A stretch of DNA of 64,000 bases from an uncultured Candidatus Saccharibacteria bacterium (lineage in GTDB: Bacteria; Patescibacteriota; Saccharimonadia; Saccharimonadales; JALRHH01): contig CAZPVS010000003.1 in assembly GCA_964590315.1 (NCBI GenBank), positions 16,699-80,698 on the forward strand. The letters are read 5' to 3'. Within the stretch, counting starts at the first letter, position 1. The number at the start of each line of letters is the position of its first letter. The notes beneath the pieces were generated by a model. It worked only from the letters and a program-made list of their open reading frames with translations, made no database searches and was not told the DNA's origin. Positions 494-25,300 of this stretch are shown piece by piece. The translations under genes were made by a program, and so were the position numbers.

Positions 494-3400
494 TTACGGC
501 AGCGGACAATTTGCCTGACCGCCACTTTGCCGACATGGCGTGTCGAGTGGTTGCTGCTCTCCGCCTGTAAAGGTTTTACCATGCTTGAGACGCTTCGATG
601 GGTCAGAGGTAAAGAACAATGAAAGGTCGGCTATAGTGGGGCCTCTGTCTACATCTTCTGGGTAACCAAACGTCTTCGATGCATCAATAGTCACGAAGAA
701 ATAATAGTATCTCGCGCAAGTGACATTATTCCCCGATCCATCAAGTGGCGTGTACGAATTGACCGTGCCCAAGGTAACGTCTCCGAAGTTTGTTTCTTGA
801 CCCCATGTACTCATATCAGCCGTACCACAATCTGTCGGTACGCCATCATTGTCGTTCATGGAACGGTATTTAGCTTGCCAGCGGGCACCGATGGAGTTAT
901 CAATGCCATTCATTAACCAGGAATTTGGGAAAACGTCCGTATCTGCGTCAATCATCCGAGAATAAAGCGCCACTTGAGGTTGGGACTTAACAGTTGAGTA
1001 GTAGTGACGGTTTGTTGATAGTGGCGCAGTACAGCCTCCACCCATAGTGTATATTTTGCCCTTGTCATAAGCCACCGCAGCCCCGTAACGGTCACCACTA
1101 TAACGGACGTTTGTCTCATACCATTCCCCAACACCAGTTGGATTATTACCACTCGCAATAGTGGTATTGGCACTAATCGGTGTTACCAGAACCTTGGGAA
1201 TACATGTAGATGCCGCAGACCGACCACCTATCAGATAAATATAGCCATTGGCAGACACTGCCCTTGAGTCACGCAGAGGGGTAGGAAGACTTGTCGTATC
1301 CTGCCAGGCATCAACAGTACCGTCACTGTTGATTTGTGTGAACTGTACGTCATTCAGGTAATTTGTGCCGTCAAAACCACCAAATACATACAGGTTATTC
1401 GCGTATGCAGTCACTGCTGCGCCTGCTCGTCCCACATTAAATTGTGTGGTGGATGTCCACGATCCAGTAATGTTGCCGCCGCTATTTTGCTGTGGACTCA
1501 CGTATACCGTCGTTTGTGCAACATTGCTGACGTTTAAGCCGCCTACAAGGTAAATACGATTATTCCACACCGCAGTACTAAACTGTTTGCGGCCATTAGA
1601 TAATGTGGCGGTGGTCGTTCCCCACGTTGGGTTACCCGAACTGATGGAGGTCGTATAGTAATTCGAACTCGTCGTGCTTCCCCCGCTCGTCTGTCCCGCT
1701 ATCCAGTACAGTGTTCCGGCTACCGCTTCGAGCGACCCCCAGGCGCGACCCCCAGGCATACTACCCCCGGCAGCCCATGTTCCAACAGAACCATCGTTTG
1801 CGCTAATAGGCGCATATTCAACGCTACTGGTGACTGATGTACAGTCCGTAGCACTAATACAGCCGCCTCCGACATAGAGGTAGCCATTAAGGATGGCCGC
1901 GCTAGCCCCCCACCTATCCGTTGACGCAGTAAAGGTTTGGTCAGATTGAGCGGTAAAATTATTGACGGCTCCACTATCATTGTTATATAGCTGGAATGTT
2001 TGTACTTCTTCCTGCATATCAGTACAGCCGGCAGGCGCATAAAGCGCCGCACAACCGCCAATCGCATAGACATAGCCATTACTGACTGCCGCTCGCAAGT
2101 CCCATCGTGGAGTTACCACTACTCCCGAACTACTCCACGGCCCCATGTCCCCCGTACTGACATCGATTCTTGAGAATAATAAGTCCTGTAATGATTCTGC
2201 ACCACTATAGCCTGCTAACGAGTAGATGTACCCATTGTAGCCAAACGAGACGGCCCGTCGACGAACTGGATCCATCTGAGCAGTTGCAAATTGCCACACC
2301 CCACCAGATTGAGCCACGATATTATTGCTATCATCTATCTTTGCGAAAATAGTATCCTTACGGTTTGCGGCATAATTACTCCCGCATGGATCATTTGCAG
2401 AACCCACGGCAGAGCACGATCCACCAACAAGATAAATACGATTTGCATAAATAGTTCCGGCCATCAGGCCAAGGCCCTGATTGCCTCCATTGATGTTGTC
2501 GGCATCTATTTGGAGCTGGCCAGTGGTCGTACAGGTATTTACCGCACCTGCAGTGTCGATGTTACATTTAATCGTATCGGAGTGATATGTGCTACACCCG
2601 ATGCCACTTGTGGCACTACACCCACCAAGCATGTAGAGGTTGCCCGGGTTCGTTGCTACTGCCGCGGGGTTAGCACGAGTAAACATATACATATAGCCTC
2701 GGGCGTCATCCGCAGTGCCAGTCAAACCCACACTTGCAAACGTTTGTGATGTCCACGCGCCGGTTAGGGAACCATCGGCATTGAGGCCGACCCTCCATAT
2801 ACTACTTTGCCAGGCTAAAGAGTTGGTACCTCCGGCTACATAGATGACATTATTAAAGACAGCTGTACCGGCCGCTCCAAGGCCGGCGGTGCCATTGATA
2901 CGATTAGTGCTGTCGACACACCAATGTCCATATGAAGTACCTGAGCATGTCGACGGAGCAGCGAGCGCTCCTGTAGTTGATATGGCGGAATAAGAGATGT
3001 TACCACTCATGTTTGAGCTACAGGAGCTACTGGCCGTAACACACCCTCCGATGTTGTAAATAAAGCCGTTGTTGATAACAACCATGCTCGACATTTGGCC
3101 ACCTTGCCCTGCGCTGTCACCTGGCGGAGGCAGGTCACAGTTAGTTGGAGACCCGCCACTACAGGGGGCGGTCCCGCTCGGCTCTGAATTGTTGACCGTA
3201 CTCGCATCACCGTCGGGGTTAATGACACCATAATCCACATCTGCGAGTGTGGATATACAATTGCCACTTGAGGTATCCTGTTGGGCACAGCCTCCAAAAC
3301 GATATAGCCCTCCTTGCCATGCAATAAAGCTATAGCCTACCCGTTGATTAGATAAATTAAGAATCTCGTTCCATGGCGCTATTGAACCATCAGCATTAAT

Positions 3401-6076
3401 ACTGGCGAGCTGCGTCGTAGAGCTCACTGTTGTACAATACCCACTTCCATTGACTGCGGTACAGCCACCAGCCAAATATATGTATGCTCCCCAAACCGCA
3501 GAGAAATTACCGCCAAGCGTCGCTCGTGCCCCAGAGAAGCTCTCTGTCGCAATCCAAGCATTAAGTGACCCGCTACTGTTAATCTTTGCATAATACACGG
3601 CGCTGCGCATATTGGCGCTTGAAGTAGCTGCTCCCTCGAACCCTCCGATTGTATACAGCACATCATTATATATATGTACCGTATGCATATGCGTACCTGC
3701 TCCGGCCGGTAATGCAGTACCTGGGTTCCAGCTCCCAAGAGTACCCGTAGGATTGATATTGGCATACTCCACCGTTGTCACCCCACCGCTCGCGGCATTC
3801 GTTTGGCCACCTACCAGATATAATCGATTATTGTATGCTGCAGCAGCCAAATAACTCCTGGCGGTTCCACCGCTAAGACCCGTGTCACTATACCAATAGG
3901 CAGCTGTCCCGCCTGTCGGGTGCCATAATTGCGGTTCACCATTTGCCCCGAGCTTTGCAATATAAATTGTAGACGTGCGATTGCCGCTCCCATCCAGGCC
4001 ACCAATGACGTAGAGATAGCCGTTATATGCCACCATGCTATGCCCTCTTCTCGCGGAAGGCAGAGCGTATGCCGAATCACTACACCATCCGCTGCAGGCT
4101 CCTGCGCCCGGGTTGGGACTCTCTATAGCCAAGGAACTGGAATTGAACTTCGCCCAACTGACTTCGGTCTGCGTAGCAGTCGTATATGTAGCAGGATTGA
4201 TCGCAATCGTGCCACTCCCCCATTGGTCTGTAATTGATGTGTCCGCATAAGTTGCTGTACCCGTAGATACACCTGATGCCGGGGGAGTGTCGAGTGATGC
4301 AGCTGCATAGGCGCACCCTCCTGAGGCCGAGGAACGAGCAGAACCAATTTTGGTATGACCAGATGGTACCCACCCAGTCGCACTGGGATTATCATTATCT
4401 GCACCTGCAGCACGAATAATCAATGTTGCGTCATTGCTAGGAGTAATTGCCGGGAATACCGGCTGATTATTTGAAGCACCCGAGTTATTGGTCGTCGGAG
4501 TCGGAGTGACCGGAGTACTCGAATTGAAGTTTGTGACCCGCACAATTATGCCAGCCATCTGCTCACTCGCTGACGTAGTCCAAGTATAACTGGCCGCTTC
4601 GTTCCCCCCACTGACATTACTGCCAATCTTGTAATATCCTGAGAATTCCCCAGTGTCGGCGAACTCGGTCCACCCCCCACCTACTGGCTCAGTCATTGTT
4701 ACACTACGTCCTGCATTCTGGTCCTTGCACATAACAGCAATGTACAAATCACCAGCCGGTCGACTCGTAGGCATGTTCATTTGAAATGTCGTCCCGTTAC
4801 TCCCATCAAGCGTTTCTTGCTGGGCGACAATTTGTGGTTTAGACGGCCCTGTCCTTCCGCCCGACCGGTATACATAGCCCCCCGCGGCGGCTGTGGCCAC
4901 ATCCCACGCACCCTGGCTCATGTCCAGATTTTGCTCCCACGCATTGATACGGGCACCTGTCGTTTGACTCTTCTGAATCAGTTCGTTGTCGATATCAAAA
5001 TCGGTATTTGTTTCGTTATTACCGCGCATCAACTTGGCTGCAGTCTCTACATATATAGTCGGGTCAATTGAGAGTGGATAGTTTGCCTGTAGTAAGTTTG
5101 TGGTGACAATTTTTAGGGTAGTACCCTCGAGTTCGAAGTGGCTTTGCGCTTTTGAAGGCTGCTTCTCGGACTCAATAACGACTGGTGCAGGTACCCGGAA
5201 GAGCAGCTTGTTTTTCTTTGAATTTTGGCGCGCTTTTTCTAGTAACTGTTTGTCTGCGTCGGTTCCGGCAGAAACATTACCATTTATGGGTAGGTCGCTC
5301 CCGTATACACCGATAGAGCCGTCTTTCTCGAGACGAGCTTCTACGCCATTTGCAACGGTCAGTTCAAACTCAAACGTTATACTGTCTTTATCATAGCTCT
5401 CGAGGAGAATATCTTCTTTCACACTCGCCGAACGAGCAGTATACACGACATAACCATTCTGTTTCATGAGGCGATAGAAAATTTGATTGTCTTCTTTTTT
5501 GGCCTCGTCCAATCGGAATTTTGGCACCAGCCCAAAGTCAACATTGCTCATCTTGTCAGAGACTTGTACCCCTTTTGATGGGTCGGAACTAAATGAGGCC
5601 TCAAAACGAGGCTGATTACTACCGGAGGTGATAGATCCACTTGTACCGGCAAAATTCTCGTTATACACAAATTTCTCGTCTTGGGCATTTTCTTTCAGGA
5701 GTTTGCCAAATTCAATATTCTTTTTGGGTAACACGGCGCGCGCTTCTTCACTGACACGATACGGACGGTCTTCAATAAAAGGCTGCACAATGGTTGCAAC
5801 CACCGATAGCAAGAACATGCCGGCCACGCCGATAACATACGCACGGCGCAAGTAATTTTTGAATGGCCAACGGGCAAATTCGGATGCCTTGAATTTTGCC
5901 CATATAGACTGCCTCCTCTTAGAAGCAACTTTGCCTATAGAACGCACGAGCCAGTACTTCTGCCCACTATGTCGTTTTTTGTTCTTCGTAGGACGGTGGG
6001 ATGGGTCATCAGAACCATACAGACGGCCGTGCGGCTGCCGTGCATATGAACCTCTCGATGATTTTATGTTATCCAT
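494..6076 (-). CDS. Giant membrane-anchored multi-Kelch beta-propeller surface protein (Kelch A, 1860 aa)
   Basis: Uninterrupted 5.6-kb ORF. A basic N-tail is followed by a TM helix (VIGVAGMFLLSVVATIV, about 5780-5842). About 17 Kelch-type blades carry signatures such as YNGYLYVIGG, YNNRLYLVGG, WNNRIYLVGG and ANGYIYLIGG at roughly 50-60 aa spacing (about 1160-4060). It is a clear paralogue of 18010-22347, sharing the N-domain, the blades and the C-terminal motif. Confidence 0.9.
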   Translation of the reverse strand: MDNIKSSRGSYARQPHGRLYGSDDPSHRPTKNKKRHSGQKYWLVRSIGKVASKRRQSIWAKFKASEFARWPFKNYLRRAYVIGVAGMFLLSVVATIVQPFIEDRPYRVSEEARAVLPKKNIEFGKLLKENAQDEKFVYNENFAGTSGSITSGSNQPRFEASFSSDPSKGVQVSDKMSNVDFGLVPKFRLDEAKKEDNQIFYRLMKQNGYVVYTARSASVKEDILLESYDKDSITFEFELTVANGVEARLEKDGSIGVYGSDLPINGNVSAGTDADKQLLEKARQNSKKNKLLFRVPAPVVIESEKQPSKAQSHFELEGTTLKIVTTNLLQANYPLSIDPTIYVETAAKLMRGNNETNTDFDIDNELIQKSQTTGARINAWEQNLDMSQGAWDVATAAAGGYVYRSGGRTGPSKPQIVAQQETLDGSNGTTFQMNMPTSRPAGDLYIAVMCKDQNAGRSVTMTEPVGGGWTEFADTGEFSGYYKIGSNVSGGNEAASYTWTTSASEQMAGIIVRVTNFNSSTPVTPTPTTNNSGASNNQPVFPAITPSNDATLIIRAAGADNDNPSATGWVPSGHTKIGSARSSASGGCAYAAASLDTPPASGVSTGTATYADTSITDQWGSGTIAINPATYTTATQTEVSWAKFNSSSLAIESPNPGAGACSGWCSDSAYALPSARRGHSMVAYNGYLYVIGGLDGSGNRTSTIYIAKLGANGEPQLWHPTGGTAAYWYSDTGLSGGTARSYLAAAAYNNRLYLVGGQTNAASGGVTTVEYANINPTGTLGSWNPGTALPAGAGTHMHTVHIYNDVLYTIGGFEGAATSSANMRSAVYYAKINSSGSLNAWIATESFSGARATLGGNFSAVWGAYIYLAGGCTAVNGSGYCTTVSSTTQLASINADGSIAPWNEILNLSNQRVGYSFIAWQGGLYRFGGCAQQDTSSGNCISTLADVDYGVINPDGDASTVNNSEPSGTAPCSGGSPTNCDLPPPGDSAGQGGQMSSMVVINNGFIYNIGGCVTASSSCSSNMSGNISYSAISTTGALAAPSTCSGTSYGHWCVDSTNRINGTAGLGAAGTAVFNNVIYVAGGTNSLAWQSSIWRVGLNADGSLTGAWTSQTFASVGLTGTADDARGYMYMFTRANPAAVATNPGNLYMLGGCSATSGIGCSTYHSDTIKCNIDTAGAVNTCTTTGQLQIDADNINGGNQGLGLMAGTIYANRIYLVGGSCSAVGSANDPCGSNYAANRKDTIFAKIDDSNNIVAQSGGVWQFATAQMDPVRRRAVSFGYNGYIYSLAGYSGAESLQDLLFSRIDVSTGDMGPWSSSGVVVTPRWDLRAAVSNGYVYAIGGCAALYAPAGCTDMQEEVQTFQLYNNDSGAVNNFTAQSDQTFTASTDRWGASAAILNGYLYVGGGCISATDCTSVTSSVEYAPISANDGSVGTWAAGGSMPGGRAWGSLEAVAGTLYWIAGQTSGGSTTSSNYYTTSISSGNPTWGTTTATLSNGRKQFSTAVWNNRIYLVGGLNVSNVAQTTVYVSPQQNSGGNITGSWTSTTQFNVGRAGAAVTAYANNLYVFGGFDGTNYLNDVQFTQINSDGTVDAWQDTTSLPTPLRDSRAVSANGYIYLIGGRSAASTCIPKVLVTPISANTTIASGNNPTGVGEWYETNVRYSGDRYGAAVAYDKGKIYTMGGGCTAPLSTNRHYYSTVKSQPQVALYSRMIDADTDVFPNSWLMNGIDNSIGARWQAKYRSMNDNDGVPTDCGTADMSTWGQETNFGDVTLGTVNSYTPLDGSGNNVTCARYYYFFVTIDASKTFGYPEDVDRGPTIADLSLFFTSDPSKRLKHGKTFTGGEQQPLDTPCRQSGGQANCPLP
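4187..4819 (-). other. About 210-aa domain inserted in Kelch A and absent from Kelch B; related by motif pattern to the N-domain of the GDPD protein
   Basis: AGDLYIAVMC / GGGWTEF / ASYTWTT / PAITPSNDATLIIRAAG / SGVSTGTATY / WGSGTIAINP aligns in the same order with LGDWMIMMIV / TGDWTVL / ATYTFNQ / SSITTTSPDTLGIVLAF / TGPTGSATITY / NGLAAIIGIP of ORF 15798-17363. Confidence 0.45.
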
Positions 6077-6552: not shown

Positions 6553-9500
6553 CTACGTATTACTAAAGGTGAAGTCTAAGTTTTCTACATATACATTCTT
6601 ATTGTTCCGAGCACTCATATTAATCTTGAAGATCACATAATCACCCGCCACGAAGCTACAACCTGTCTCATCACCCGTTTGTGATCGTTGCTCCCAGCTG
6701 TTAGAACTCTGCGTAATATTGGTACTGGATCCACATAATGAAATCGTTCCGCCACTGACGTTCTTGCGATAGACCTCCAGGTTGGCGAGTGCGTTAGTGT
6801 CACTGGCATCATCTCGGTAGGCGGTCAGTTTGATAGTATTTGCATCTAGGAAGCCCTTAAACGTAGATGGTAATTTGTAATTCACGTATATGCTGTAGGT
6901 CTGCAGGGTAGCCTGTGGTGAAGTCCAGCGGTAGTAACTGCGTGCCTCGCCTGAAGCACAGAAGGTGGTATTAACTGATAGGCCGCCGCCATTACCACAG
7001 AAGTCTGCTGTCATCGTACCAACGCCACTGCCATTGAGCACGGCACCTGCATACTCCGGTGTCAGGGTAATAATGTTGTCGGGAGCCGAGCCACAGGCAC
7101 CCCACCCATCAGACTCATAACACTGAATCCGACCGGTTGTTGTGTCGTAGTACATCGAACCATAGTAGGTGCTGTCTCCATTGGCAACCGGTGGGGCTGA
7201 TGACCGGTCAAGTGTAAACAATGTGATTGGTCCACCGTCGATACCACCACCAATTTGCACGTTGGAAGGCTGTGTCGTCGTATCGTTACGCATGAAGCTC
7301 AGGTTATCGATGTAGATTGTGCGAGCAGTCGCGTCTGTCTGACGAATGATTAAGTCTGGGTTTGTAGCGGTCGTACTATCGGTCGTAATCGTACAGGTTA
7401 TCTTCGTCCATACAGAGGTTGACAACGTCTGGGAGCTGTAGCTTGTACATGGCTCAATGTCAGTACCACCGTCGCGAGAGTAGGCCACTTGTAATGTACT
7501 GAATGTGCCTGCTGACAGCTTGGCCGTGAATGACACTTGGTACGTCGTGCTGACGACGGGGTTAGCAGTCAGATTGTTACGCACGCCGTCATTAGCCAGT
7601 GCGGTGGTAGTGACCGATACGCCTGCTTGACCGGTAACATATTGTCCAGCGGTTGTCGTGCGACTACGGGAGGCGCTCCCCACTGTTGTCCAGTCGGTGT
7701 TAAAGCTCGACGACGTTTCGGCGCCACCATTATCAGCAAGTTCAGTACCGCGATTGTTGACACTGAACAAGTTTGTTCCAATTGAGCTTTGTACCTCTAA
7801 AAGACCGCCATTTATCGGAGTTGTTCCATTGTTACGGATAGTAAATCCGTCGGCTGAACCACCGGACGCGTTGAGCACGATTTCTGCACCACCTGCAGAG
7901 GTTAAAGTGTTATTGTAGGCAGACTGAAGGTCAGTCGAACTTGATGCACCGGCAGCAGTCCAGTCGGTACCGTTCCATATGAGCGTAGCGGTACTGTTAG
8001 CTTTCATTGCAATATCAATCGGTGTTCGTGCCGCATTGAGTCTCATAGTGAAGTCAAGTGATCCACTCCGTGCAGATATGTACAGCACACGGCCAATAAC
8101 AGACTGTGCCGGATCAGGCACTGTCAGTACAGACCCAAGATTTGTGTTTGCCTTCACTGGTAACGAGCTGTAGAGGTCGACATTTCCTGCAGTGATAGAC
8201 GTACTGCTGGTAAATGCTTGTTCCGCAGCAGAAGTAAAGGCACTGGTAGAGAGGTTGACGAGGCCTTGCGAACCACTACCCGTTGCCGCACCTCCAGAGA
8301 TAGTTACTGAACCACCGTTGTTGTTTCCAGAGCCTGCAGCATCACCACCCTGCAGCACAAGCCCACCACCAGTATTACCTGTAGTAGAGCCGTTAGCCTG
8401 CCCTGCCCTGAGGGTCATCTGATAGCCCGCAGCGTTGGCGGTCGTGTTCTGCGCAACGCTCAAGGTGCGGTTAGCTCCCTGGGCGAAGGTAATATCACCC
8501 CCGGCCGTAATACTATCGTCCAGGTTAATGACCCCCGTGCCATTAGCAAGCAAAGTTAGATCCTGGTTCGTTCCGGTAGTAATATCAGTGGTCACACCGC
8601 TGAATACCATCTGGCCACTGAATAGCGCAGCAGCTGTTGACGTACTGTATATCGCATAGTTAGTACTGCCGCCCCCGTTACCCTGTATGTAAATACCGTA
8701 GTTGTTGGTCGTGCCACCGGCACCACTTGGCTGCGTAATATGCAGACCGTAGTTGTTCAGGGTGCCACCTGCGCCAGCTGCGGCTGTATTTGAGCCAACC
8801 TTGACGCCGTAGTTGTTCCAGGTGCCTGATGTATTGCCGCCGTGACCGTTTAGGTTGCCTACTTCGAGACCCATGTAATTGGTAATGGTGCCGGTGCCAG
8901 CAATGGACGGACCAGCAGCATACAGGGCGCGAGCATCAGTGACAACACCGGTAAAGCCAGCAGCGATATCGATACGGTTGTAGCCACCGTAAACGTCACC
9001 AATAGTGTAGTTACTGCCACTAAGGTTTGGAATGTTAATGAAACCGTAGACATTGGACAGTGAGCCGCCACTTGGATTAACACTGAATTGGTTCTGGATA
9101 CCGTAGACGGAGCTTGTGGTTGTGGTGTTCAGGGCGCCTCCAACAACCAGCTTAGAGTTGGTGATTGAGTTACCGTTGACACTCAGGCGGGTACTGTCCA
9201 CAGTGACTTCTGCGCCAGAACGACCAAGGGTGATGGCGGTTGCGGTAGTAGTACCAAGACTGAGGGTGCCAGCAGCTGAAACGTCAACGGTGGGAGTTAA
9301 GACACTGGTGTCAGCATAGAGGCTCCTCCAACTGAAAGCAGCAGAGCCAAGATCAATAGTGTTGTCTGCACCGGTAAGGAGACTAGTGTTAATGGCAACG
9401 CTGCTGAGGTTGGACAGTGCAGTGTTGGCACCAGCTCCCCCTGCTGCCGCACCAATCACCCGCCAGAGTGATGCACCACTATCATATGCCAGTTCTACGG

Positions 9501-12500
9501 AAGCGCCAGTCAGAATTGAGAGGTCGCTGCCAGTACCGGTAATGATGCGGTTCGCCGCGCTGGAACTTCCAGAGTTATTGCTTAAAGTGGCAGTGTTGGC
9601 ACCGATATTCATAAGGGTGATGATACGACCGTCCGTGCCACCAGCTATGCCAGTAATGGTCTGTGCGGAAGCGCCAGTAAGGCGGAAGAGCGCGCCGGTG
9701 CCAAAATCAACATTATTACTCGTTCCGGTGGTACTGAAATCAGTCCCCCGCTGGAAAGCAACATTGCCACCATTGGATATGGTCAGCCCGCCGTTCAAAG
9801 TGGTGGCCTGTGTCACCGTCAATGCCCCATTCACAGTTGTAGTGATACCGGTTCGGGAGATAGATACGGCATTAGCATTGGTTGTACCGAGATTGAGGGT
9901 GGCGGCACCACCGGTATCGACAGTTAGGGTGTTTGCTCCACCACTCCTAATACTTAAGGCACCGGAAGATACGAGGTTAGTGCTTGAACCAAGACTGACG
10001 GTGCCAGAACCAGCTTGGATCGTTAGATCACCAGCAGTCGTACTAACAGTACTTGCTGCGTTGCCAGTAATAGCAAAGTCATCTTGTGGGGTGAGGAGGT
10101 AGCTAGAGCCATTAGATTGCCCGGCGTAGATGGTGTTGGTGCCCGCGTCGCTAATACTACTAGCGCCGGTGCCAGAATAGATGTTGTCGGAGAGATAGGT
10201 GTTGTCTGAGGCGGCATCGTTAACCTCTATGGCGTACCCAGTGCCGGCAGTATCGGTAATAGTGTTGCTGGTGATGTGGGTACGGTCAGAGTCATTGACA
10301 TAGATGGAGGAGTGGGCGGTGCTGGCAGTATTGTCTTTGAGGTTGTTGCTGGTAATGGTGTTGTCGGTACCACTGGTGATGCGGATACCGCTGCTGCCGC
10401 TACTAACGACGTTGTTGTTGGCTACCATGGTGAAGAATGAGGCACTTAGCCAGATGCCATGACCAGTCATTCCAAAGAGTATGTTATTGGTGACAACGTT
10501 GCTCCGACCGTTGCCTATGTATATACCGTTGCCCGTGTTGGCCTGAAGGGTGTTGTTGGTGATGTTGTTGTAGGATGAAGTGTTGAGGCGGATACCGTCA
10601 CTGATGAAGTTGCTAATCCAGGTGTTGGTCACAATACCACCCTGACGACTACCGGATTGACTCCCCATACCTTCAAGGTAGATACCATACATGGTACCAG
10701 TCGTGTTCGTGGCTTTGTCACCATCCAACCGTACATCACGAATAACAACACCCGTACCAGTCGTGGTATCAGTGTTGGTGATCATGTTCTTGGTTTGGCC
10801 GGCGATGTTCGCAAATTGGATGAGGGTACCACGGCCAGCACCAGACAGCGTCGTGTTATTCGGAATAGAGATAACGTCATCAGTGGTGAAGGTACCTTCG
10901 AAGAGGTAGACCTTTCCGCCAGCGGCAGCAGTTAAGGCACTATTAATCTCTGTTTGGTCAGCAGTACCGTCTGCGACGTAGTCTGCACTGTCTTTGATGG
11001 CTTGGGAGGCGGTGCTGGGGGCGACGGTCTTAGTAGCAGTACTACGGTCTGCCTGCCACTTACCGTTACTGTAGGTTAGGAGACTCTTGGTGGTAGTGTC
11101 AAAGTAGAGCATGCCTTCGGTTGGGGAGGCAGGACGGGAGGCGGTGTTCCCGCCGGTGATGGTGAGGCTCTTACCTGCTGCCACAACAACATCACCATTG
11201 AAGGTAGCCGTACCCGTACCACTTGCAAACGTACCAGAGCTGGCAGATTGGTCGAAGTTGTACGCACCAGCCGCAAAGGTAAAGCCCGTAGCACCAGTAA
11301 TGGCACCAGCGGAGCTAATGTCTATGTTAGTGGTCTGGAGGCTAAAGGTACCAGAACCACCACCGATAGTAACAAGACCCGTGCTGGTACCGGTGTTTAT
11401 GTTGGTAGCGTTGTTGGCGTTAACGTTAATGTTAGTTACGCCTGTTACACCAACACTGGTACCAGATTGAAGTGCAATAGCACCAGCAGCAGAGTTACCA
11501 ATGCTAATGGCACCGGTTGAAGTACCAGTGTTAATGTTGGTGGTGTTGTTAGAGCTAACATTGAGGTTGAGGGTGCCACCAAGGATTGAGGTTGCACCGG
11601 TTACGGTAACTGTACCGTTAATACCTACGGTGTCGAGTGAATCACCGACGGTGAGACTATCTGCGTCGGCGTTGTTAGCAATTTGGATAGTGTCACAGGT
11701 TGCAGAGTTACATAGTGAAACAGCAGTCGTAGTTGCACCGTTACCAACGGCTAGTGTACCGCTACCACCACCAATGTAGTCGACCGCTGCGGTCAGGACA
11801 GAAGTGTCTGCATAGAGTGTACGCCAGCTGGCAGCAGTAGAGCCAAGATCAAGCGTGTTGTCTGCGTTGGCGAGAAGACTGAGGTTGACGGCTACGGTAC
11901 CACTGAGGTTAGAGAGTTGTTGGTTTGCACCGCCACCGGTTGTGGCAACACCACCAACTATACGCCAGAGACTTGCACCACTGTCATATATAAGAGTAGT
12001 TGACGCACCGGCAGGTAGGATGAGGTCAGCACCGGTACCGGTCGTAATGCGGTTAGCTGCTGATGAGCTACCCGAATCGTTAGACAGTGTGACGTTTGCG
12101 CTAGCGTCAGCATTAACTAGTGTGAGCATAAATCCATCACGGCCACCGGCAATACCCGTAATAGTCTGGGCTGCACCAGACGTGTCTAAGCGAACGAGAG
12201 AGGCACCGCCAAAGTCTACGTTGTTGGCAGAGCCGGCAGTGGTGTAATCTGCACCACGCTTTGTGGCAAGTGAACCAGTTATGTCGGTGGTGTCAGTGAC
12301 GGCGTTGCCGAGGGTGGTGTTGCCGTTAATCGTGACATTTTCATTCACAACAAGCGCACCATTTACCGTGAAGTTTGTACCACTGGCTCCAGCTGCGATA
12401 CTGCCATCGCCATTTACCTGGAATGATGTCGTGGCTCCATTGTTTGAAGTTGTCTTGAATACATACTGTCCGGCATTACTGCTTTGTATGTCAATTGATA

Positions 12501-14859
12501 CGCCGTTAGCAGACGCATTTGTAGTGTCAAGCACCCCTAGATTACCCGTACCTGCACCAGTCAGATTGAGTACTGCACCAGTAGACGCAGTGTACTGTTG
12601 GTTTAGGTTCAATATATTACTACTGTCATTGCATGTGCCAGCTGTCTGAGTACAGGTTGACTGGAGGTTGGCGAGCGCACCGGTAATGTTATAGGTTGCG
12701 CCAGCGTTGTTGACTGTATTGGATCTTACGAGGTTTAAGAATTGTCCAGAGTCGGTTCGAGTAGCCGCAGCGGTAAGTGTTCGGGTTGGCGTTACATTAA
12801 GATATGCACCGCTAAAGTCAGCTGTTATAGCAGATGCAGCGCCAGTAACGTTCAGCGCCTTACCTGTTGTGAAGCCATTTGCAGTAGTATTGAACAAGAA
12901 TCCATTACCTGTTGTGATACTTGTACCTGCTGCATTGAATGAAGACCCAGTTGAAGTACCCACAGCAGAGAAGCCTGTTCCGGCTGAACTGCTGCTTGCT
13001 GTGCCCAAGATGCTCAACCCACTGTTGACCGTATCGATGGTGAACACTGAGGCACCAGCGGCATTCGCGACATTAAGTGCAAAGTTGGTATTTTCAACAG
13101 AGCGTATTGCAACTGGTGCAGTAATAACCGAGCTGACCTGCAGTGTGCCAGTACTTGGTTGCATACCACTCTGGTTTACGCCCGAGTGCAAACCTATTCC
13201 GTCTATATATATAGTACGAGCAACTGCATCGTTTTGCATTATATAGATACTTGACGGCGCAGTGATGGTCGCTCCAGTAGTAAAGGTACAGTTTAGCCGA
13301 TACCAACCTGAGTTAGTCGCAGTCTGTACTGCGCAGTTAACGTTTGTACCAGAAACATCCTGTCGCCCCATAATAAATGCACTAACCGTTCCAGTACTAA
13401 TCCTGACAAATGCGGTGAGCGTATACTGAGTAGATGGTGTCAGAGTAACATCATATGAAGCACCTTGGTTAGCTCCAGTCGTAGTGAAGCTCATGCTGTT
13501 TGCTCCGTACAACTTCTGGGCAGTAGACTGCGTCGGTGCGCCCGCACCACCCTTTGATGCCCAGCCACTTACACCACTCTCAAATGATGAGTTAGGTATG
13601 AGATTCGTATATAGATCAGACGTGCCAGCAACCAGCACATCTTCAGCATCCTGATTCCGAATGACGAATGCCGATGAGTTGTCAGTGGAGGTTTGGATAG
13701 TAGTTTGTCCGCCGGTAAAGTTGATTGCCGTACCACTGAAGTTGAGCGTGTCAAGACTGTCACCCACGTTCACCGTGTCGGCATCTGTGTTGGTTGCAAC
13801 ATTGACTGTGTCACAACTTGCACTATTACATACAGAAATACTCGTGGCGGTACTATCGCCAATGCTGAGGGTGCCAGCGGCCCGAGTGTCTAGCGAGGAA
13901 GCAACCTGGAGGTTACCTGCGGCAGTAACGGCGGCGAGTACTGATCCGGCACTTGCCTGGAATTGCATGAGATCAACGGTCTGCCCGTTAGCAGCCCCAC
14001 GGATAACACCACCAATTGTTCCATTGGCTCCGCTATCGCGTGCCTGGATATTGAAGTTGGTCTGAGTTTGTACAACGGTATCGTTCTGGATGTAGTAGGC
14101 GGAGCCTGCGGCTGCTGGACAGTTACTCGCTGCACCATTGTAAACACAAATTGTACCCGGACTGCCTGTTGTTGCGAGGCTCGTATCCGGGAAAAGATAC
14201 GTTCTGTCTGCCGTTAAATTGCTGAAATCTACCGTACCCGTAAACGAACCCGTGTTTTTACTCAACGTCTCCGCGCTGTCGGCAACGGTTGCTCGGAACG
14301 CAAATGGGACGCTCGTCAGCCTGATGCGGGGAGTCATCTCTCCATCCCATCCTGGAGCACCCGTACCACCAATGTTCATGGTGAGCCAGAGCTGCTGGTT
14401 CCAGATGTTGGTAGGAAGTGAAGTTACGTCACCGAGGTAGGCGCTTAGGTAACCGTTCTTGACCTGAATCTTGTTTCCGGCTGTGCGCGTCTCTGTCCAC
14501 AAACATGCAGCATCACCAGTACACGAACCCTGGGATGAGCCGGAGCTACTACTAGCGTTGTACAGTTTGAACTCAACGTTGTACGTTCCATCGGCAACCA
14601 GACTACCGGAACTGTTGAGGAGACGTGCCTGGAAATTAAGTGTGGTAGGCGCAGCGGCATTGACGACAGGTGGGCTCGTGCGCGTAATAGAAACAACAGA
14701 GGTCAAGACTACCATGGTCAGTAACGCAACAAACACCCTCATCCACATGCGTGCGAGGGTGTGACGTAACAGTACTCGTGTTGGAGTTGGTTTTGACACT
14801 TTGTTTGGTAGTTGTTTGTATTGGCTTTTTGAAACTTTTTGTTCTTTGACCACGAGCAT
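6553..14859 (-). CDS. Giant membrane-anchored fibre/adhesin (fibre A, 2768 aa) with a parallel beta-helix and two CBM-like modules
   Basis: Uninterrupted 8.3-kb ORF. A basic N-tail is followed by a TM helix (FVALLTMVVLTSVVSI, about 14686-14745). The body is T/S/G/N/A-rich with very few charged residues and contains paired-Cys modules (CNSASCDT, CNSATCDT). Other elements: PbH1-type beta-helix repeats, two N..FE.G...W beta-sandwich modules, and an internal diverged duplication (about 9300-9780 versus 11800-12270). The C-terminal roughly 150 aa are homologous to the C-terminus of fibre B. Confidence 0.9.
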   Translation of the reverse strand: MLVVKEQKVSKSQYKQLPNKVSKPTPTRVLLRHTLARMWMRVFVALLTMVVLTSVVSITRTSPPVVNAAAPTTLNFQARLLNSSGSLVADGTYNVEFKLYNASSSSGSSQGSCTGDAACLWTETRTAGNKIQVKNGYLSAYLGDVTSLPTNIWNQQLWLTMNIGGTGAPGWDGEMTPRIRLTSVPFAFRATVADSAETLSKNTGSFTGTVDFSNLTADRTYLFPDTSLATTGSPGTICVYNGAASNCPAAAGSAYYIQNDTVVQTQTNFNIQARDSGANGTIGGVIRGAANGQTVDLMQFQASAGSVLAAVTAAGNLQVASSLDTRAAGTLSIGDSTATSISVCNSASCDTVNVATNTDADTVNVGDSLDTLNFSGTAINFTGGQTTIQTSTDNSSAFVIRNQDAEDVLVAGTSDLYTNLIPNSSFESGVSGWASKGGAGAPTQSTAQKLYGANSMSFTTTGANQGASYDVTLTPSTQYTLTAFVRISTGTVSAFIMGRQDVSGTNVNCAVQTATNSGWYRLNCTFTTGATITAPSSIYIMQNDAVARTIYIDGIGLHSGVNQSGMQPSTGTLQVSSVITAPVAIRSVENTNFALNVANAAGASVFTIDTVNSGLSILGTASSSSAGTGFSAVGTSTGSSFNAAGTSITTGNGFLFNTTANGFTTGKALNVTGAASAITADFSGAYLNVTPTRTLTAAATRTDSGQFLNLVRSNTVNNAGATYNITGALANLQSTCTQTAGTCNDSSNILNLNQQYTASTGAVLNLTGAGTGNLGVLDTTNASANGVSIDIQSSNAGQYVFKTTSNNGATTSFQVNGDGSIAAGASGTNFTVNGALVVNENVTINGNTTLGNAVTDTTDITGSLATKRGADYTTAGSANNVDFGGASLVRLDTSGAAQTITGIAGGRDGFMLTLVNADASANVTLSNDSGSSSAANRITTGTGADLILPAGASTTLIYDSGASLWRIVGGVATTGGGANQQLSNLSGTVAVNLSLLANADNTLDLGSTAASWRTLYADTSVLTAAVDYIGGGSGTLAVGNGATTTAVSLCNSATCDTIQIANNADADSLTVGDSLDTVGINGTVTVTGATSILGGTLNLNVSSNNTTNINTGTSTGAISIGNSAAGAIALQSGTSVGVTGVTNINVNANNATNINTGTSTGLVTIGGGSGTFSLQTTNIDISSAGAITGATGFTFAAGAYNFDQSASSGTFASGTGTATFNGDVVVAAGKSLTITGGNTASRPASPTEGMLYFDTTTKSLLTYSNGKWQADRSTATKTVAPSTASQAIKDSADYVADGTADQTEINSALTAAAGGKVYLFEGTFTTDDVISIPNNTTLSGAGRGTLIQFANIAGQTKNMITNTDTTTGTGVVIRDVRLDGDKATNTTGTMYGIYLEGMGSQSGSRQGGIVTNTWISNFISDGIRLNTSSYNNITNNTLQANTGNGIYIGNGRSNVVTNNILFGMTGHGIWLSASFFTMVANNNVVSSGSSGIRITSGTDNTITSNNLKDNTASTAHSSIYVNDSDRTHITSNTITDTAGTGYAIEVNDAASDNTYLSDNIYSGTGASSISDAGTNTIYAGQSNGSSYLLTPQDDFAITGNAASTVSTTAGDLTIQAGSGTVSLGSSTNLVSSGALSIRSGGANTLTVDTGGAATLNLGTTNANAVSISRTGITTTVNGALTVTQATTLNGGLTISNGGNVAFQRGTDFSTTGTSNNVDFGTGALFRLTGASAQTITGIAGGTDGRIITLMNIGANTATLSNNSGSSSAANRIITGTGSDLSILTGASVELAYDSGASLWRVIGAAAGGAGANTALSNLSSVAINTSLLTGADNTIDLGSAAFSWRSLYADTSVLTPTVDVSAAGTLSLGTTTATAITLGRSGAEVTVDSTRLSVNGNSITNSKLVVGGALNTTTTSSVYGIQNQFSVNPSGGSLSNVYGFINIPNLSGSNYTIGDVYGGYNRIDIAAGFTGVVTDARALYAAGPSIAGTGTITNYMGLEVGNLNGHGGNTSGTWNNYGVKVGSNTAAAGAGGTLNNYGLHITQPSGAGGTTNNYGIYIQGNGGGSTNYAIYSTSTAAALFSGQMVFSGVTTDITTGTNQDLTLLANGTGVINLDDSITAGGDITFAQGANRTLSVAQNTTANAAGYQMTLRAGQANGSTTGNTGGGLVLQGGDAAGSGNNNGGSVTISGGAATGSGSQGLVNLSTSAFTSAAEQAFTSSTSITAGNVDLYSSLPVKANTNLGSVLTVPDPAQSVIGRVLYISARSGSLDFTMRLNAARTPIDIAMKANSTATLIWNGTDWTAAGASSSTDLQSAYNNTLTSAGGAEIVLNASGGSADGFTIRNNGTTPINGGLLEVQSSIGTNLFSVNNRGTELADNGGAETSSSFNTDWTTVGSASRSRTTTAGQYVTGQAGVSVTTTALANDGVRNNLTANPVVSTTYQVSFTAKLSAGTFSTLQVAYSRDGGTDIEPCTSYSSQTLSTSVWTKITCTITTDSTTATNPDLIIRQTDATARTIYIDNLSFMRNDTTTQPSNVQIGGGIDGGPITLFTLDRSSAPPVANGDSTYYGSMYYDTTTGRIQCYESDGWGACGSAPDNIITLTPEYAGAVLNGSGVGTMTADFCGNGGGLSVNTTFCASGEARSYYRWTSPQATLQTYSIYVNYKLPSTFKGFLDANTIKLTAYRDDASDTNALANLEVYRKNVSGGTISLCGSSTNITQSSNSWEQRSQTGDETGCSFVAGDYVIFKINMSARNNKNVYVENLDFTFSNT
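7292..7745 (-). other. CBM4/9-like beta-sandwich module 2 of fibre A
   Basis: ELADNGGAETSSSFNTDWTTVG....TYQVSFTAKLSAG....WTKITCTITT....ARTIYIDNLSFM. This has the same layout as module 1 and as carbohydrate-binding jelly-roll modules. Confidence 0.5.
9807..10758. repeat. 952-bp tract 100% identical to 23047-23998 (copy in fibre A)
   Basis: Line-by-line comparison shows no mismatch at a constant offset of 13,240 bp. The first mismatch is at 10759/23999. Weaker homology continues to about 11170/24410. At the low-coordinate edge identity stops abruptly. Confidence 0.95.
10120..10925 (-). other. Right-handed parallel beta-helix (PbH1/pectate-lyase-like repeats) of fibre A
   Basis: GGKVYLFEGTFTTDDVISIPNNTTLSGAGRGTLIQF...VVIRDVRLDG...NTWISNFISDGIRLNTSSYNNITNNTLQANTGNGIYIGNGRSNVVTNNILFGMTGHGIWL...NNVVSSGSSGIRITSGTDNTITSNNLKDN...ITSNTITDTAGTGYAIEVND. 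These are repeats of about 22 aa with an N/I/T ladder, as in tailspike and polysaccharide-lyase beta-helices. Confidence 0.7.
13186..13608 (-). other. CBM4/9-like beta-sandwich module 1 of fibre A
   Basis: NLIPNSSFESGVSGWASKGG....SMSFTTTGANQGASYDVTLTPSTQYTLTAFVRISTG....GWYRLNCTFTT....ARTIYIDGIGLH. Confidence 0.55.
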
Positions 14860-22363: not shown

Positions 22364-25300
22364 TTAATATTTACCGAGATAGTTAAGGGTTAAGTTACCG
22401 ACTCTCACATCACCATTCTGCGGTGACTGCACACGAATACGTAAGGTCATGTAGTCACCTGCCGTGTACGTACCGCTGCTCAACGTACAAGCGGTATTAT
22501 TTGCTGTCCATGTGCTGGTGCTGCCAGGTGTTACGCTGACGAAGTTACAGATGACAGAATCGGTAGAGTCACGAGCCTCCAGTGTAATTGTGCCGTTGGT
22601 AGTGTTTGATGTGTAGCCAGTGATAGAGAGCGGATTGCTCGCCCAGGTATCAAAGTCCTTGGGAATCGGCACCTGCACGACGATATCATAGCTCTGGTTG
22701 GTAGCTTGGGTAGTCGTCCACTTATAGTAATTCATTCTATTAGTGATATCGTAGCCACTGGTCATCGTACCAGTGTTGTTACTCATAGTACCGGCATCGA
22801 GTACTGAGCCTTGATACTCTGCTGCGTAGCGAATCGTCTCGGCATTTCGTGCAGTTCCTGCCAGGACAATTCCGCTGCCCGATAGGGTGATAGTATTGCC
22901 ACTATTGCCGACAACAACTTGCATGCCTGAGGTGTTCGCGGTGAGCAGCGCGACATTACCGGCAGTCTGTACCAGGAACGCTGAGGCTGACGTGGTGGTC
23001 ACAGAAGTGTTGCCATTAAGTGACGCCGTGCTGTTGGCAGTTAGACCCTGTGTCACCGTCAATGCCCCATTCACAGTTGTAGTGATACCGGTTCGGGAGA
23101 TAGATACGGCATTAGCATTGGTTGTACCGAGATTGAGGGTGGCGGCACCACCGGTATCGACAGTTAGGGTGTTTGCTCCACCACTCCTAATACTTAAGGC
23201 ACCGGAAGATACGAGGTTAGTGCTTGAACCAAGACTGACGGTGCCAGAACCAGCTTGGATCGTTAGATCACCAGCAGTCGTACTAACAGTACTTGCTGCG
23301 TTGCCAGTAATAGCAAAGTCATCTTGTGGGGTGAGGAGGTAGCTAGAGCCATTAGATTGCCCGGCGTAGATGGTGTTGGTGCCCGCGTCGCTAATACTAC
23401 TAGCGCCGGTGCCAGAATAGATGTTGTCGGAGAGATAGGTGTTGTCTGAGGCGGCATCGTTAACCTCTATGGCGTACCCAGTGCCGGCAGTATCGGTAAT
23501 AGTGTTGCTGGTGATGTGGGTACGGTCAGAGTCATTGACATAGATGGAGGAGTGGGCGGTGCTGGCAGTATTGTCTTTGAGGTTGTTGCTGGTAATGGTG
23601 TTGTCGGTACCACTGGTGATGCGGATACCGCTGCTGCCGCTACTAACGACGTTGTTGTTGGCTACCATGGTGAAGAATGAGGCACTTAGCCAGATGCCAT
23701 GACCAGTCATTCCAAAGAGTATGTTATTGGTGACAACGTTGCTCCGACCGTTGCCTATGTATATACCGTTGCCCGTGTTGGCCTGAAGGGTGTTGTTGGT
23801 GATGTTGTTGTAGGATGAAGTGTTGAGGCGGATACCGTCACTGATGAAGTTGCTAATCCAGGTGTTGGTCACAATACCACCCTGACGACTACCGGATTGA
23901 CTCCCCATACCTTCAAGGTAGATACCATACATGGTACCAGTCGTGTTCGTGGCTTTGTCACCATCCAACCGTACATCACGAATAACAACACCCGTACCCG
24001 TCGTAGTATCGGTGTTGGTGATCATGTTCTTGGTTTGGCCGGCGATGTTCGCAAACTGGATGAGGGTACCACGGCCAGCACCAGACAAGGTGGTGTTATT
24101 CGGGATAGAGATAACGTCATCAGTAGTAAAGGTACCTTCGAAGAGGTAGACCTTACCGCCAGCGGCAGCAGTTAAGGCACTGTTAATTTCTGTTTGGTCG
24201 CTCGTACCATCAGCTACGTAGTCGGCGCTGTCTTTAATAGCTTGGGAGGCATTACTCGGGGCAACCGTCTTGGTAGCAGTGGTTCTATCTGCCTGCCACT
24301 TACCGTTACTGTAGGTCAGGAGACTCTTGGTGGTAGTGTCAAAGTAGATCATGCCTTCGGTTGGAGAGCCTGGGCGGGAGGCGGTGTTACCGCCGGTGAT
24401 GGTGAGGGATTGGGAGGCGGCGAGGATGACGTTACCGTTAAACTGAGCGGTACTGTCTGTGGTAAAGGCCTGCGTCACTGTCAGTGCGCCGGCATTGATC
24501 GTGGTGATGCCAGCTTTACCGAGGGTGATAGCGGTTGCAGTAGTGGCACCAAGACTGAGCGTGCCGGCAGCGGCTGTGTCAACTGCAGGAGTTAAGACAC
24601 TCGTATCAGCGTAGAGGCTTCTCCAGCTAAAGGCAGCAGAGCCAAGGTCAATAGTATTGTCTGCACCGGTGAGGAGGCTGGTGTTAATGGCGACGGAGGA
24701 GAGGTTAGAGAGACTTTGGTTAGCAGCACCACCGGTAGTGGCACTTGAGCCTACTACACGCCAGCGCACTGTAGCGGAATCATACAATAGCTGAATAGTA
24801 GAACCGGCAGGAACAGTCAAGTCACCACCAGTACCGGTAATAATGCGGTTCACGTTCGTGCCACCACTTTCGTTGCGCACAATTAGCGACTGAGCCGCAG
24901 CGTTAACCAACGTAAGCAGCCTGCCATCTACAGGATTTGCGATACTCGTCAAAGTCTGAGTAGATGCACCAGTAAAGCGGAATAATACTCCAGAGCCTAG
25001 ATTAAGGTCGTTCAGAGTGCCTGTAGTGGAAATATTAGTGGTGTTACGCTGGAAGGCTACGTTGCCGACGTCGGTGACAGTCAGGGAGCCACTAATTTGA
25101 GTATTCTTATTTAGATTGATCTGAGTGGCGTTACTTGAGCCAATATTCAGTGCTGTTGCAGTGGCAGTATCAAGCAATGGCGTAACAACCGCCGTATCCG
25201 CCCGACCAGTACCGGAGATCCAGTAGTCTGCCGAGGACTGCTGTGCTAGGTTCTGGTTCTGGATGTAGTTACCAGAGCCTGAGCCAGCCGCAAACACCGC

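Follow-up and report, generated by a model that had tools for sequence, protein, structure and literature searches.

Two giant genes in the stretch of Saccharibacteria DNA analysed here (64,000 nucleotides, hereafter the window) share one segment of 952 bp without a single difference, while the remainder of the two genes cannot be aligned. This raises the question of how the identical segment came to reside in both. Saccharibacteria live attached to other bacteria as their hosts, and the genes this lifestyle requires include some for extracellular proteins that bind or degrade glycans (PMC10633639). Moreover, they show natural competence, incoming DNA being integrated through homologous recombination when flanks of 0.5-1 kb are present (PMC10633639). 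A preliminary description of the locus had seen two fibre genes, in which a putative, tailspike-like enzymatic core is homogenised by recent conversion or recombination.

Results

The two genes encode giant, membrane-anchored surface proteins. Gene B (6553..14859, minus strand) specifies a protein of 2768 aa with an N-terminal TM anchor (aa 38-60) and CBM_4_9 domains, and gene D (22364..30388, minus strand) a protein of 2674 aa with a TM anchor at aa 84-107 and three tandem units of ~342 aa. Each harbors one copy of a shared module of 455 codons, located at aa 1230-1684 in B and aa 1993-2447 in D. A giant Kelch-repeat gene, A (494..6076, minus strand, with Pfam Kelch matches), lies downstream of B, and its paralogue, gene C (18010-22347), lies downstream of D; the A and C proteins are 26-28% identical over their whole length, with no similarity left at the nucleotide level. 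The C-terminal domain of B (6565..7071, minus strand) is homologous to that encoded by 22379-22834 of D (28% aa identity, BLASTP E = 2e-10), and this divergence gives the age of the B/D paralogy against which the module has to be seen. The comparison of A with C shows that B+A and D+C are ancient tandem duplicates of a fibre and Kelch gene pair. Given the 28% identity of the C-terminal domain and the 26-28% identity of A and C, the 98.7% aa identity of the module copies (96.8% at the nucleotide level) has to be secondary. The regions around the module had been described as diverging flanking modules; in fact, the flank architectures differ, and homology is only ancient, being that of the C-terminal domain.

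The surroundings of B and D are chromosomal. Their neighbours include IleRS, RNR, FtsZ, FtsA, IF-2, PriA and S1, and the same synteny is found in other Saccharibacteria chromosomes. Matches to PHROG families are weak and partial (phrog_7458, E = 2e-6 over 86 residues), and a collection of 2.9 million viral contigs yielded one distant match to the module. Together with the N-terminal TM anchors, these findings led us to reject a phage origin, and the initial view of phage tailspike or fibre genes gives way to one of membrane-anchored giant surface proteins on a Saccharibacteria chromosome. With regard to an involvement of tRNAs or integration sites, there are no tRNAs within the window.

We then compared the two module copies. 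Self-BLASTN, the check proposed in the preliminary description, reproduced the 952-bp identity: positions 9807..10758 (minus strand, B codons 1367-1684) match 23047..23998 (minus strand, D codons 2130-2447) letter for letter, in the same orientation and at an offset of 13,240, corresponding to module codons 139-455. Over the 233 synonymous sites of this tract, dS is 0. The full alignment (9807-11167 vs 23047-24407) spans 1361 bp at 96.84% identity, with 43 mismatches and no gaps, and the probability of all 43 falling by chance within 409 of the 1361 sites is 3.5e-23. As described before, the first mismatch is at 10759/23999 and the low-coordinate edge is abrupt. Both proteins share the residues ...TTVNGALTVTQ, beyond which their sequences differ, and below 9807 identity drops immediately to a background of about 25-30%; because both genes are on the minus strand, this sharp edge is the C-terminal side. 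At the high-coordinate edge, the nucleotide alignment breaks off at 11168-11175, close to the previously estimated 11170/24410, and weak protein similarity continues for ~13 codons. The substitutions had been called mostly synonymous, which is borne out by 36 mismatching sites at third-codon positions and by Nei-Gojobori counts, in which about 37 of the differences between the module copies are synonymous and 10 non-synonymous.

All of these differences reside in the 5' part of the module (10759..11172 in B and its partner 23999..24412 in D, both minus strand; module codons 1-138; 43-47 mismatches), which holds an RP..P..G..YFDT neck and the first helix rungs. In these 414 bp adjoining the exact tract, pS is 0.37 (37 synonymous differences at ~101 synonymous sites) and dN is 0.03. 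Divergence is distributed unevenly: in successive blocks starting from the exact tract, dS is 0, 0.31, saturated and 0.24. The one-sided identity gradient noted earlier is thus not monotonic but a mosaic, and the block structure points to several exchange events. Within the hyper-divergent block (10960..11049, minus strand, module codons 42-71; D partner 24200-24289), 18 of the 30 codons differ at their third position although the protein sequence is maintained (permutation p = 0.002), and a slightly wider block, codons 41-75, has a pS of 0.77 and a dN of 0.065. A maximum chi-square breakpoint test over the whole module returned a permutation p < 2e-4.

B and D have a second module in common, here termed 'X' (9223..9417, minus strand, in B; 24518-24712 in D), which represents the more diverged homologous patch initially placed at about 9300-9420 vs 24596-24720. 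It is C-terminal to the helix in B and N-terminal to it in D, at an offset of 15,295 bp. The copies are 82.6% identical at the nucleotide level with a dS of 0.76, and the two proteins agree completely over the first 42 aa of these 65 codons. 'X' records an earlier exchange between B and D that was not collinear.

To what kind of protein the module belongs is indicated by profile, model and fold comparisons. The module matches the Pfam families Beta_helix, NosD and Pect-lyase_RHGA_epim, scoring 56.3 bits against PF13229 (curated cut-off 25.9), 51.7 against PF05048 (23.6) and 30.2 against PF12708 (27). The AF2 model has a mean pLDDT of 81.5, rising above 90 over residues ~60-350, which include the rungs. 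Foldseek returned 153 PDB matches with E <= 1e-3, the best 50 of the 153 all being parallel beta-helix proteins, and ranked AlgE4/AlgE6 first, followed by tailspikes. On the strength of profiles and model, the module is a right-handed parallel beta-helix of carbohydrate-active type, and the parallel beta-helix with tailspike-like relatives that had been proposed is well supported. The helix proper extends over 10123..10914 (minus strand, module residues ~87-350; D copy 23363-24154). The exact tract covers ~80% of it (10123-10758), so that the tract does include most of the helix, as had been stated, but it is not confined to it and also takes in 316 bp of post-helix linker.

The AlgE A-modules (PDB 2pyg, 5lw3) came first both by sequence (E = 2.4e-6) and by fold (E = 1e-10), and they are likewise right-handed parallel beta-helices of carbohydrate-active type. 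In contrast to AlgE, the module lacks Ca-binding R-modules, and its identity to the A-modules is 17-19%. We take the AlgE4 catalytic set to be Y149/D152/H154/D178, comprising the motif YG(F/I)DPH(D/E) plus Asp178. In the HMMER alignment, the module has D, R, N and G at the positions of Y149, D152, H154 and D178, and we rejected an AlgE-type mannuronan C5-epimerase as the identity of the module. Of the "putative enzymatic core" the beta-helix fold stands; any enzymatic activity is putative, and conservation does not extend to the catalytic residues of AlgE4. With phage tailspikes such as CBA120 TSP2, Det7, Sf6 and phi29 gp12, the module has the fold class in common.

We extended the comparison to other genomes. 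Among 5.8 billion proteins and in genome, metagenome and viral collections, no relative of the module exceeded 53% full-length or 79% partial aa identity. Module copies within a genome are mostly just 42-60% identical in aa sequence, which argues against simple conservation. Between genomes, the helix body is the fastest-evolving part of the module (38-52% aa); compared with the module of the window, L055 has a neck that is 77% identical and a helix body that is only 38% identical. L057, the closest relative that could be retrieved (IleRS 83% aa), shares the synteny, but its giant gene is only 38% identical at the N-terminus, too little for orthologues to be traced. A B-type C-terminal region follows the helix module in L009 and L055, and a D-type C-terminal domain does so in L005. 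Since each has a counterpart behind a helix module elsewhere, both flank architectures of the window are probably genuine.

Identity patterns resembling that of B and D recur in these genomes. In the MAG CAZHVV, a short-read co-assembly, two giant genes on separate contigs have only this module in common, with an exact core of ~590 bp from which identity decays to both sides. In the Nanopore MAG CAVUPG, module pairs contain exact runs of 238-346 bp within sequence of 77-90% identity, and the tandem units of gene D itself show the same pattern of exact runs in diverged sequence. The footprint of B and D thus has independent counterparts in other Saccharibacteria assemblies, one of them long-read. 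The B and D modules of the window and the CAZHVV modules L007 and L010 each group by genome, whereas other module copies group across genomes; this genome-wise clustering of paralogues could also stem from independent recent module duplications.

Discussion

The preliminary reading of the tract as the product of a recent conversion or recombination event remains the best one, with a dS of 0 beside diverged blocks and a significant breakpoint test. Specifically, we consider recent ectopic gene conversion between the B and D modules, superimposed on older exchanges, to be the probable origin of the identical copies. The absence of differences in 952 bp, set against a pS of 0.37 next door, is not the work of protein-level selection. 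The B/D paralogues go back to an ancient tandem duplication in which a giant beta-helix fibre gene and the giant Kelch-repeat gene behind it were copied together. Earlier and shorter exchanges would have left the blocks of intermediate age (dS 0.24-0.31) on either side of a 90-bp block that kept the original saturated divergence. One module copy would then have been overwritten by the other via homologous recombination without reciprocal exchange, a mechanism that, like its recency, we infer from the pattern. Such a conversion, proceeding either within the chromosome or via the cell's own DNA re-taken up by natural transformation, would have erased every difference over at least 952 bp. Its tract would end inside the module at codon 138/139, and the opposite end would be hidden, identity reaching the last base of the module. 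As to which gene was the donor, GC3 is uninformative, the background being equal in B and D. The sharp breakpoint that had been proposed is indeed a sharp edge, but since the shared module itself stops there it is not demonstrable as a conversion endpoint. An exact tract that reaches the end of homology is somewhat unexpected for conversion, which requires homology on two sides.

This feature would also fit a variant in which the helix body and linker were recently copied from one gene into the other as a module replacement or insertion, and not by conversion of a pre-existing full-length homologue. Homology in the older neck (codons 1-138) would have served on one side, and on the other the module end would have been joined illegitimately or through short homology (homology-facilitated illegitimate recombination or domain shuffling). 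Identity stops abruptly at the exact module boundary with no residual homology past it, a GITTxxxGALTVTQ-like motif at other module ends in D could offer short homology, and the module order is not the same in B and D. Moreover, the 77% neck and 38% body of L055 imply that neck and body have separate histories elsewhere. However, modules of this family normally consist of neck and body together, so that the recipient probably had a homologous body already. The junction offers microhomology of no more than a few bases, and the exact core in CAZHVV has decaying homology on both sides, as in ordinary conversion. On balance, we regard a replacement of this kind as unlikely. We also discarded GALTVTQ as a site-specific exchange point, as shared sequence in the CAZHVV pair stops elsewhere than at this motif.

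Slightly less probable still is an assembly or polishing artefact, in which real copies of ~95-99% identity were homogenised, through collapsing of de Bruijn bubbles or polishing with multi-mapped short reads, or in which the repeat was mis-traversed and the flanks swapped. Sparse SNPs in long repeats are typically erased by assemblers and polishers, and the parallel case in CAZHVV derives from a short-read co-assembly. The adjoining 409 bp nevertheless retain codon-structured differences, which shows that two real copies exist, and both flank combinations are present in other genomes. The same type of mosaic is seen in the Nanopore MAG, where exact runs reach 346 bp, and the conclusion would be unchanged even at 99% identity.

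That both genes imported the same foreign segment, by transformation from another strain or from phage, seems very improbable to us. The natural competence of Saccharibacteria (PMC10633639) would provide the means, and the GC3 of the module (0.56-0.62) is higher than that of the rest of both genes (0.47-0.48), but GC3 is equally high in the variable neck and composition does not mark the tract. Such an import would require that an identical segment was integrated twice, independently and up to the same right-hand end, and the protein, genome, metagenome and viral collections searched held no relative of the module above 79% aa identity, and that only a partial one. A nucleotide-level constraint (embedded RNA, regulatory element or overlapping gene) holding 952 bp invariant, as the plus-strand antisense ORFs 9359-10102 and 10657-10935 might suggest, is effectively refuted, given that antisense ORFs are common opposite Thr/Ser/Gly/Asn-rich genes, that helix bodies diverge fastest between genomes, and that no such constraint can give zero change at 233 synonymous sites beside saturated ones. 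A diversity-generating retroelement was likewise rejected: C/T transitions dominate both ways and all substitution types are present, where mismatches would be expected at template adenines only, and the repeat is 1.36 kb long instead of ~100-150 bp.

Gene conversion between paralogues is a known type of event, a close parallel being the ectopic conversion between the paralogous adhesin/outer-membrane protein genes babA, babB and babC of Helicobacter pylori (reviewed in PMC4552749, PMC3960876). Its occurrence in the Saccharibacteria lineage appears to be undescribed. As in the bab system, the partners here are two full-length, expressed-looking surface-protein paralogues at separate loci, and copying of segments by homologous recombination yields chimeric or mosaic genes with sharp steps in identity. 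Unlike the bab genes, B and D are giant (8 kb) multi-module fibre genes of a CPR epibiont that share one internal module of ~1.4 kb, with the remainder not alignable; a phase-variable repeat is absent, and the event is known here from one genome. In Mycoplasma genitalium mgpB/mgpC with MgPar and in Neisseria pilE/pilS, silent truncated donor cassettes generate diversity. Common to these systems and the present one are a small-genome, host-attached bacterium, surface-exposed parts of attachment proteins and mosaic blocks. B and D, by contrast, are each a complete gene, and what the exchange has visibly produced is homogenisation; self-BLASTN found no cassette archive in the window. Phage tail-fibre mosaicism resembles the locus in the swapping of modules at linker boundaries, and neighbouring giant genes carry fibre-like pieces (BppL_N-like in D, Peptidase_S74 in E). 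It differs in that our partners are paralogues within one genome, not different phages, and code for membrane-anchored proteins in a chromosomal, cellular setting.

If both fibres carry the same module through recent conversion, this module is a good candidate for a host-surface recognition element, and displaying one putative glycan-recognition module on both fibres may have adaptive value. More speculatively, and with rather low confidence, the giant fibre genes of Saccharibacteria, and perhaps those of other CPR epibionts, may constitute a recombination network through which glycan-recognition helix modules are copied time and again between fibres of different build. The exact cores in other diverged modules and the fast divergence of the giant gene (38% aa vs 83% for IleRS) are compatible with such a network. 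If it exists, a favourable host-surface specificity could spread across the fibres of a cell, chimeric fibres could come from repeat-mediated deletion, and the system would do for cells what tail-fibre mosaicism does for phages, serving the host-range adaptation of an obligate epibiont.

Recombination of this kind is textbook in mechanism, and the case is informative more than surprising in a little-studied group. The locus may serve as a natural marker for the pace of intragenomic recombination on attachment proteins of a reduced-genome epibiont. The exact repeat had also been thought able to delete or invert-swap the intervening 13 kb. Deletion of 13,240 bp is possible, whereas direct repeats cannot invert the interval between them. 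The 952-bp direct repeat is a likely site both of mis-assembly and of real 13.2-kb losses, and, as predicted from the reading frames, deletion between the repeats could yield an in-frame chimera of 3531 aa.

Genes B and D share an exact 952-bp tract

Two very long ORFs on the minus strand, the beta-helix fibre genes B (6553-14859, 2768 aa) and D (22364-30388, 2674 aa), each hold one copy of a repeat that is, by a wide margin, the strongest of the window in self-BLASTN. The ungapped alignment pairs 9807-11167 with 23047-24407 (1361 bp, 96.84% identity, 43 mismatches). As the preliminary description had stated, 9807-10758 equals 23047-23998 base for base (952 bp, same orientation, offset 13,240 bp), the first mismatch lies at 10759/23999, and identity falls to background level immediately below 9807. 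The probability that chance would confine all 43 mismatches to 409 of the 1361 positions is 3.5e-23. Since B and D are read from the minus strand, the sharp edge is the C-terminal and the decaying edge the N-terminal side of the shared segment.

This segment is a module of 455 codons (B aa 1230-1684, 9808-11172; D aa 1993-2447, 23048-24412; both minus strand) that matches Pfam Beta_helix, NosD and Pect-lyase_RHGA_epim, all above threshold. Its AlphaFold2 model (pLDDT 81.5) shows a right-handed parallel beta-helix at residues ~87-350, followed by ~105 Ser/Thr/Gly-rich residues of low confidence. Among solved structures, the AlgE4/AlgE6 mannuronan epimerase A-modules come closest, with an alginate epimerase/lyase, phage tailspikes, GH87 glucanases and the adhesin PfbA next; in an alignment to AlgE4, the catalytic residues of that enzyme are not conserved. 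By its modelled fold, the module is a putative carbohydrate-active beta-helix of unproven activity. The exact tract, initially placed inside the helix, does cover most of it (~80%, 10123-10758) but runs on for 316 bp up to the module end. GC3 is 0.56-0.62 in the module compared to 0.47-0.48 in the remainder of B and D, which could reflect GC-biased conversion or differing codon usage.

An anciently shared module was probably overwritten in steps

The B/D mismatches in the module are mainly synonymous, at third-codon positions, and fall on one side of the tract. Block-wise Nei-Gojobori estimates, listed in the coding direction, reveal a mosaic and not the monotonic gradient proposed earlier: dS is 0.24 for codons 1-40 (dN 0.057), saturated for codons 41-75 (pS 0.77, dN 0.065), 0.31 for codons 76-138 (dN 0) and 0 for codons 139-455 (dN 0). 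Permutation supported both the hyper-divergent block at codons 42-71 (10960-11049; p = 0.002) and the main identity step (p < 2e-4).

The locus arose by ancient tandem duplication of a gene pair in which a beta-helix fibre gene precedes a Kelch-repeat giant; the two resulting pairs are D-C and B-A. The Kelch-repeat giants A (494-6076, partner of B) and C (18010-22347, partner of D) are homologous lengthwise at just 26-28% aa identity, and B and D have a C-terminal domain in common (28%); neither homology left a nucleotide-level trace in self-BLASTN of the window. Against this background, the 98.7% aa identity of the module, together with its saturated block, argues that it has resided in both genes since long ago and has been overwritten in several steps, the newest of which would be a recent conversion over at least 952 bp. 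The second homologous patch noted before, module 'X', was recovered (9223-9417 vs 24518-24712, 82.6%, dS 0.76); its B and D copies flank the helix on opposite sides, so module exchanges are not limited to collinear positions. The fibre and Kelch pairing is also seen in the complete Saccharibacteria genome CP064993.

Alternative explanations for the tract

Identity stops at ...GTGACACAGG / TTVNGALTVTQ, past which B and D DNA is unrelated. A conversion tract is visible only as far as homology reaches, and since this edge coincides with the end of the shared module, the single sharp breakpoint proposed earlier is not demonstrable. Perfect identity right up to the boundary leaves room for the main rival, module replacement through one homologous and one short-homology junction; a similar GITTxxxGALTVTQ motif ends the preceding module in D, whereas the module pair of another Saccharibacteria MAG, CAZHVV, ends without such a motif. 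Assembly or polishing could also have wiped out sparse real differences within the 952 bp, which would change "identical" to "nearly identical" and leave the interpretation as it is. A mis-joined assembly is indirectly argued against by relatives in which a helix module precedes a B-type C-terminal region (L009, L055) or a D-type C-terminal domain (L005), and by neck differences (codons 1-138) that follow codon structure, indicating two genuine copies. A single young duplication cannot yield 0 differences beside dS 0.3 beside saturation. Mutagenesis like that of diversity-generating retroelements is excluded, as every substitution type is present with no adenine specificity.

Stepwise conversion is the type of process known from ectopic conversion of H. 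pylori bab adhesin paralogues (PMC4552749, PMC3960876); in terms of protein architecture, it is also similar to the swapping of modules among phage tail fibres. Full-text literature searches turned up no account of gene conversion in Saccharibacteria; the B/D tract illustrates a known mechanism cleanly and with good support, in a lineage that has received little study. Recombination between the repeats would delete 13,240 bp, removing the D C-terminal domain, gene C, the gene for a 521-aa GDPD-domain (glycerophosphodiester phosphodiesterase) protein between the two pairs (15798-17363, minus strand) and the 1229 N-terminal codons of B. The predicted product is an in-frame 3531-aa chimera. Deletion, as suggested earlier, is thus predicted, but the inversion suggested alongside it is impossible because the repeats are direct.

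Similar patterns occur in other Saccharibacteria

In CAZHVV, the module is the sole part common to two giant genes on separate contigs (1162 bp, 91.3%), with an exact core of ~590 bp and identity decaying on either side. Module pairs of neighbouring giant genes in CAVUPG, one of the Microflora Danica MAGs, which are based on Nanopore sequencing (PMC12313526), contain exact runs of 238-346 bp within 77-90% identity. Similar profiles were found at L012, L036 and L055 (CP064993.1; a 968-bp tandem pair at 96.4%) and in three tandem units of gene D (25173-27793, minus strand, ~1026 bp or ~342 aa each, 91-97.5% nt identity), whose exact runs of 167-245 bp leave a mosaic footprint as in the B/D tract. 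Within-genome copies mostly share just 42-60% aa identity and some cluster with copies of other genomes, so homogenisation is sporadic and no general property. Between genomes, the helix body usually diverges fastest (38-52% aa, with the neck reaching 77-79%), which makes perfect B/D identity there more telling.

The module relative at L055 10883-12077 is itself a mosaic (neck 77% aa, helix body only 38%, vs the window module) and is spread across multiple short gene calls, a sign of possible frameshifts or of a pseudogene. At L057 (CAZXDT010000001.1, 15016-22859), from the closest relative that could be retrieved, IleRS shares 83% aa identity with that of the window, whereas the syntenic giant gene (3313 aa, three helix regions) reaches just 38% aa at its N-terminus and has rearranged module content, pointing to extremely rapid turnover of fibres. 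Saccharibacteria show natural competence, and homologous recombination through arms of 0.5-1 kb integrates DNA into their genomes (PMC10633639), making the needed machinery plausible.

Chromosomal setting of the giant genes

The window is bacterial chromosome and not phage DNA, and encodes IleRS, class II RNR, FtsZ, FtsA and further cellular genes (methionine aminopeptidase, PriA, formyltransferase, IF-2, S1). Relatives found were Saccharibacteria (TM7/Patescibacteria) MAGs throughout, in several of which a giant beta-helix gene also adjoins the IleRS-RNR-FtsZ neighbourhood. All five giant window proteins carry exactly one strongly hydrophobic segment near the N-terminus and are probably membrane-anchored extracellular fibres. 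Gene D gave sub-threshold matches to BppL_N, the N-terminal domain of a phage baseplate receptor-binding protein. The 2690-aa product of the giant gene E (55361-63433, minus strand) arranges its domains in an unusual way. It opens with a pair of HTH_17/MerR DNA-binding domains (aa 20-118), continues through one TM helix (aa ~222-253), a collagen-like GxY run and then long internal repeats (57042-59156), and carries close to its C-terminus a Peptidase_S74 'chaperone of endosialidase' domain (aa 2417-2482) of the sort known from phage tail fibres. It is odd to find a DNA-binding head, which would be cytoplasmic, on a giant extracellular phage-fibre-like protein.
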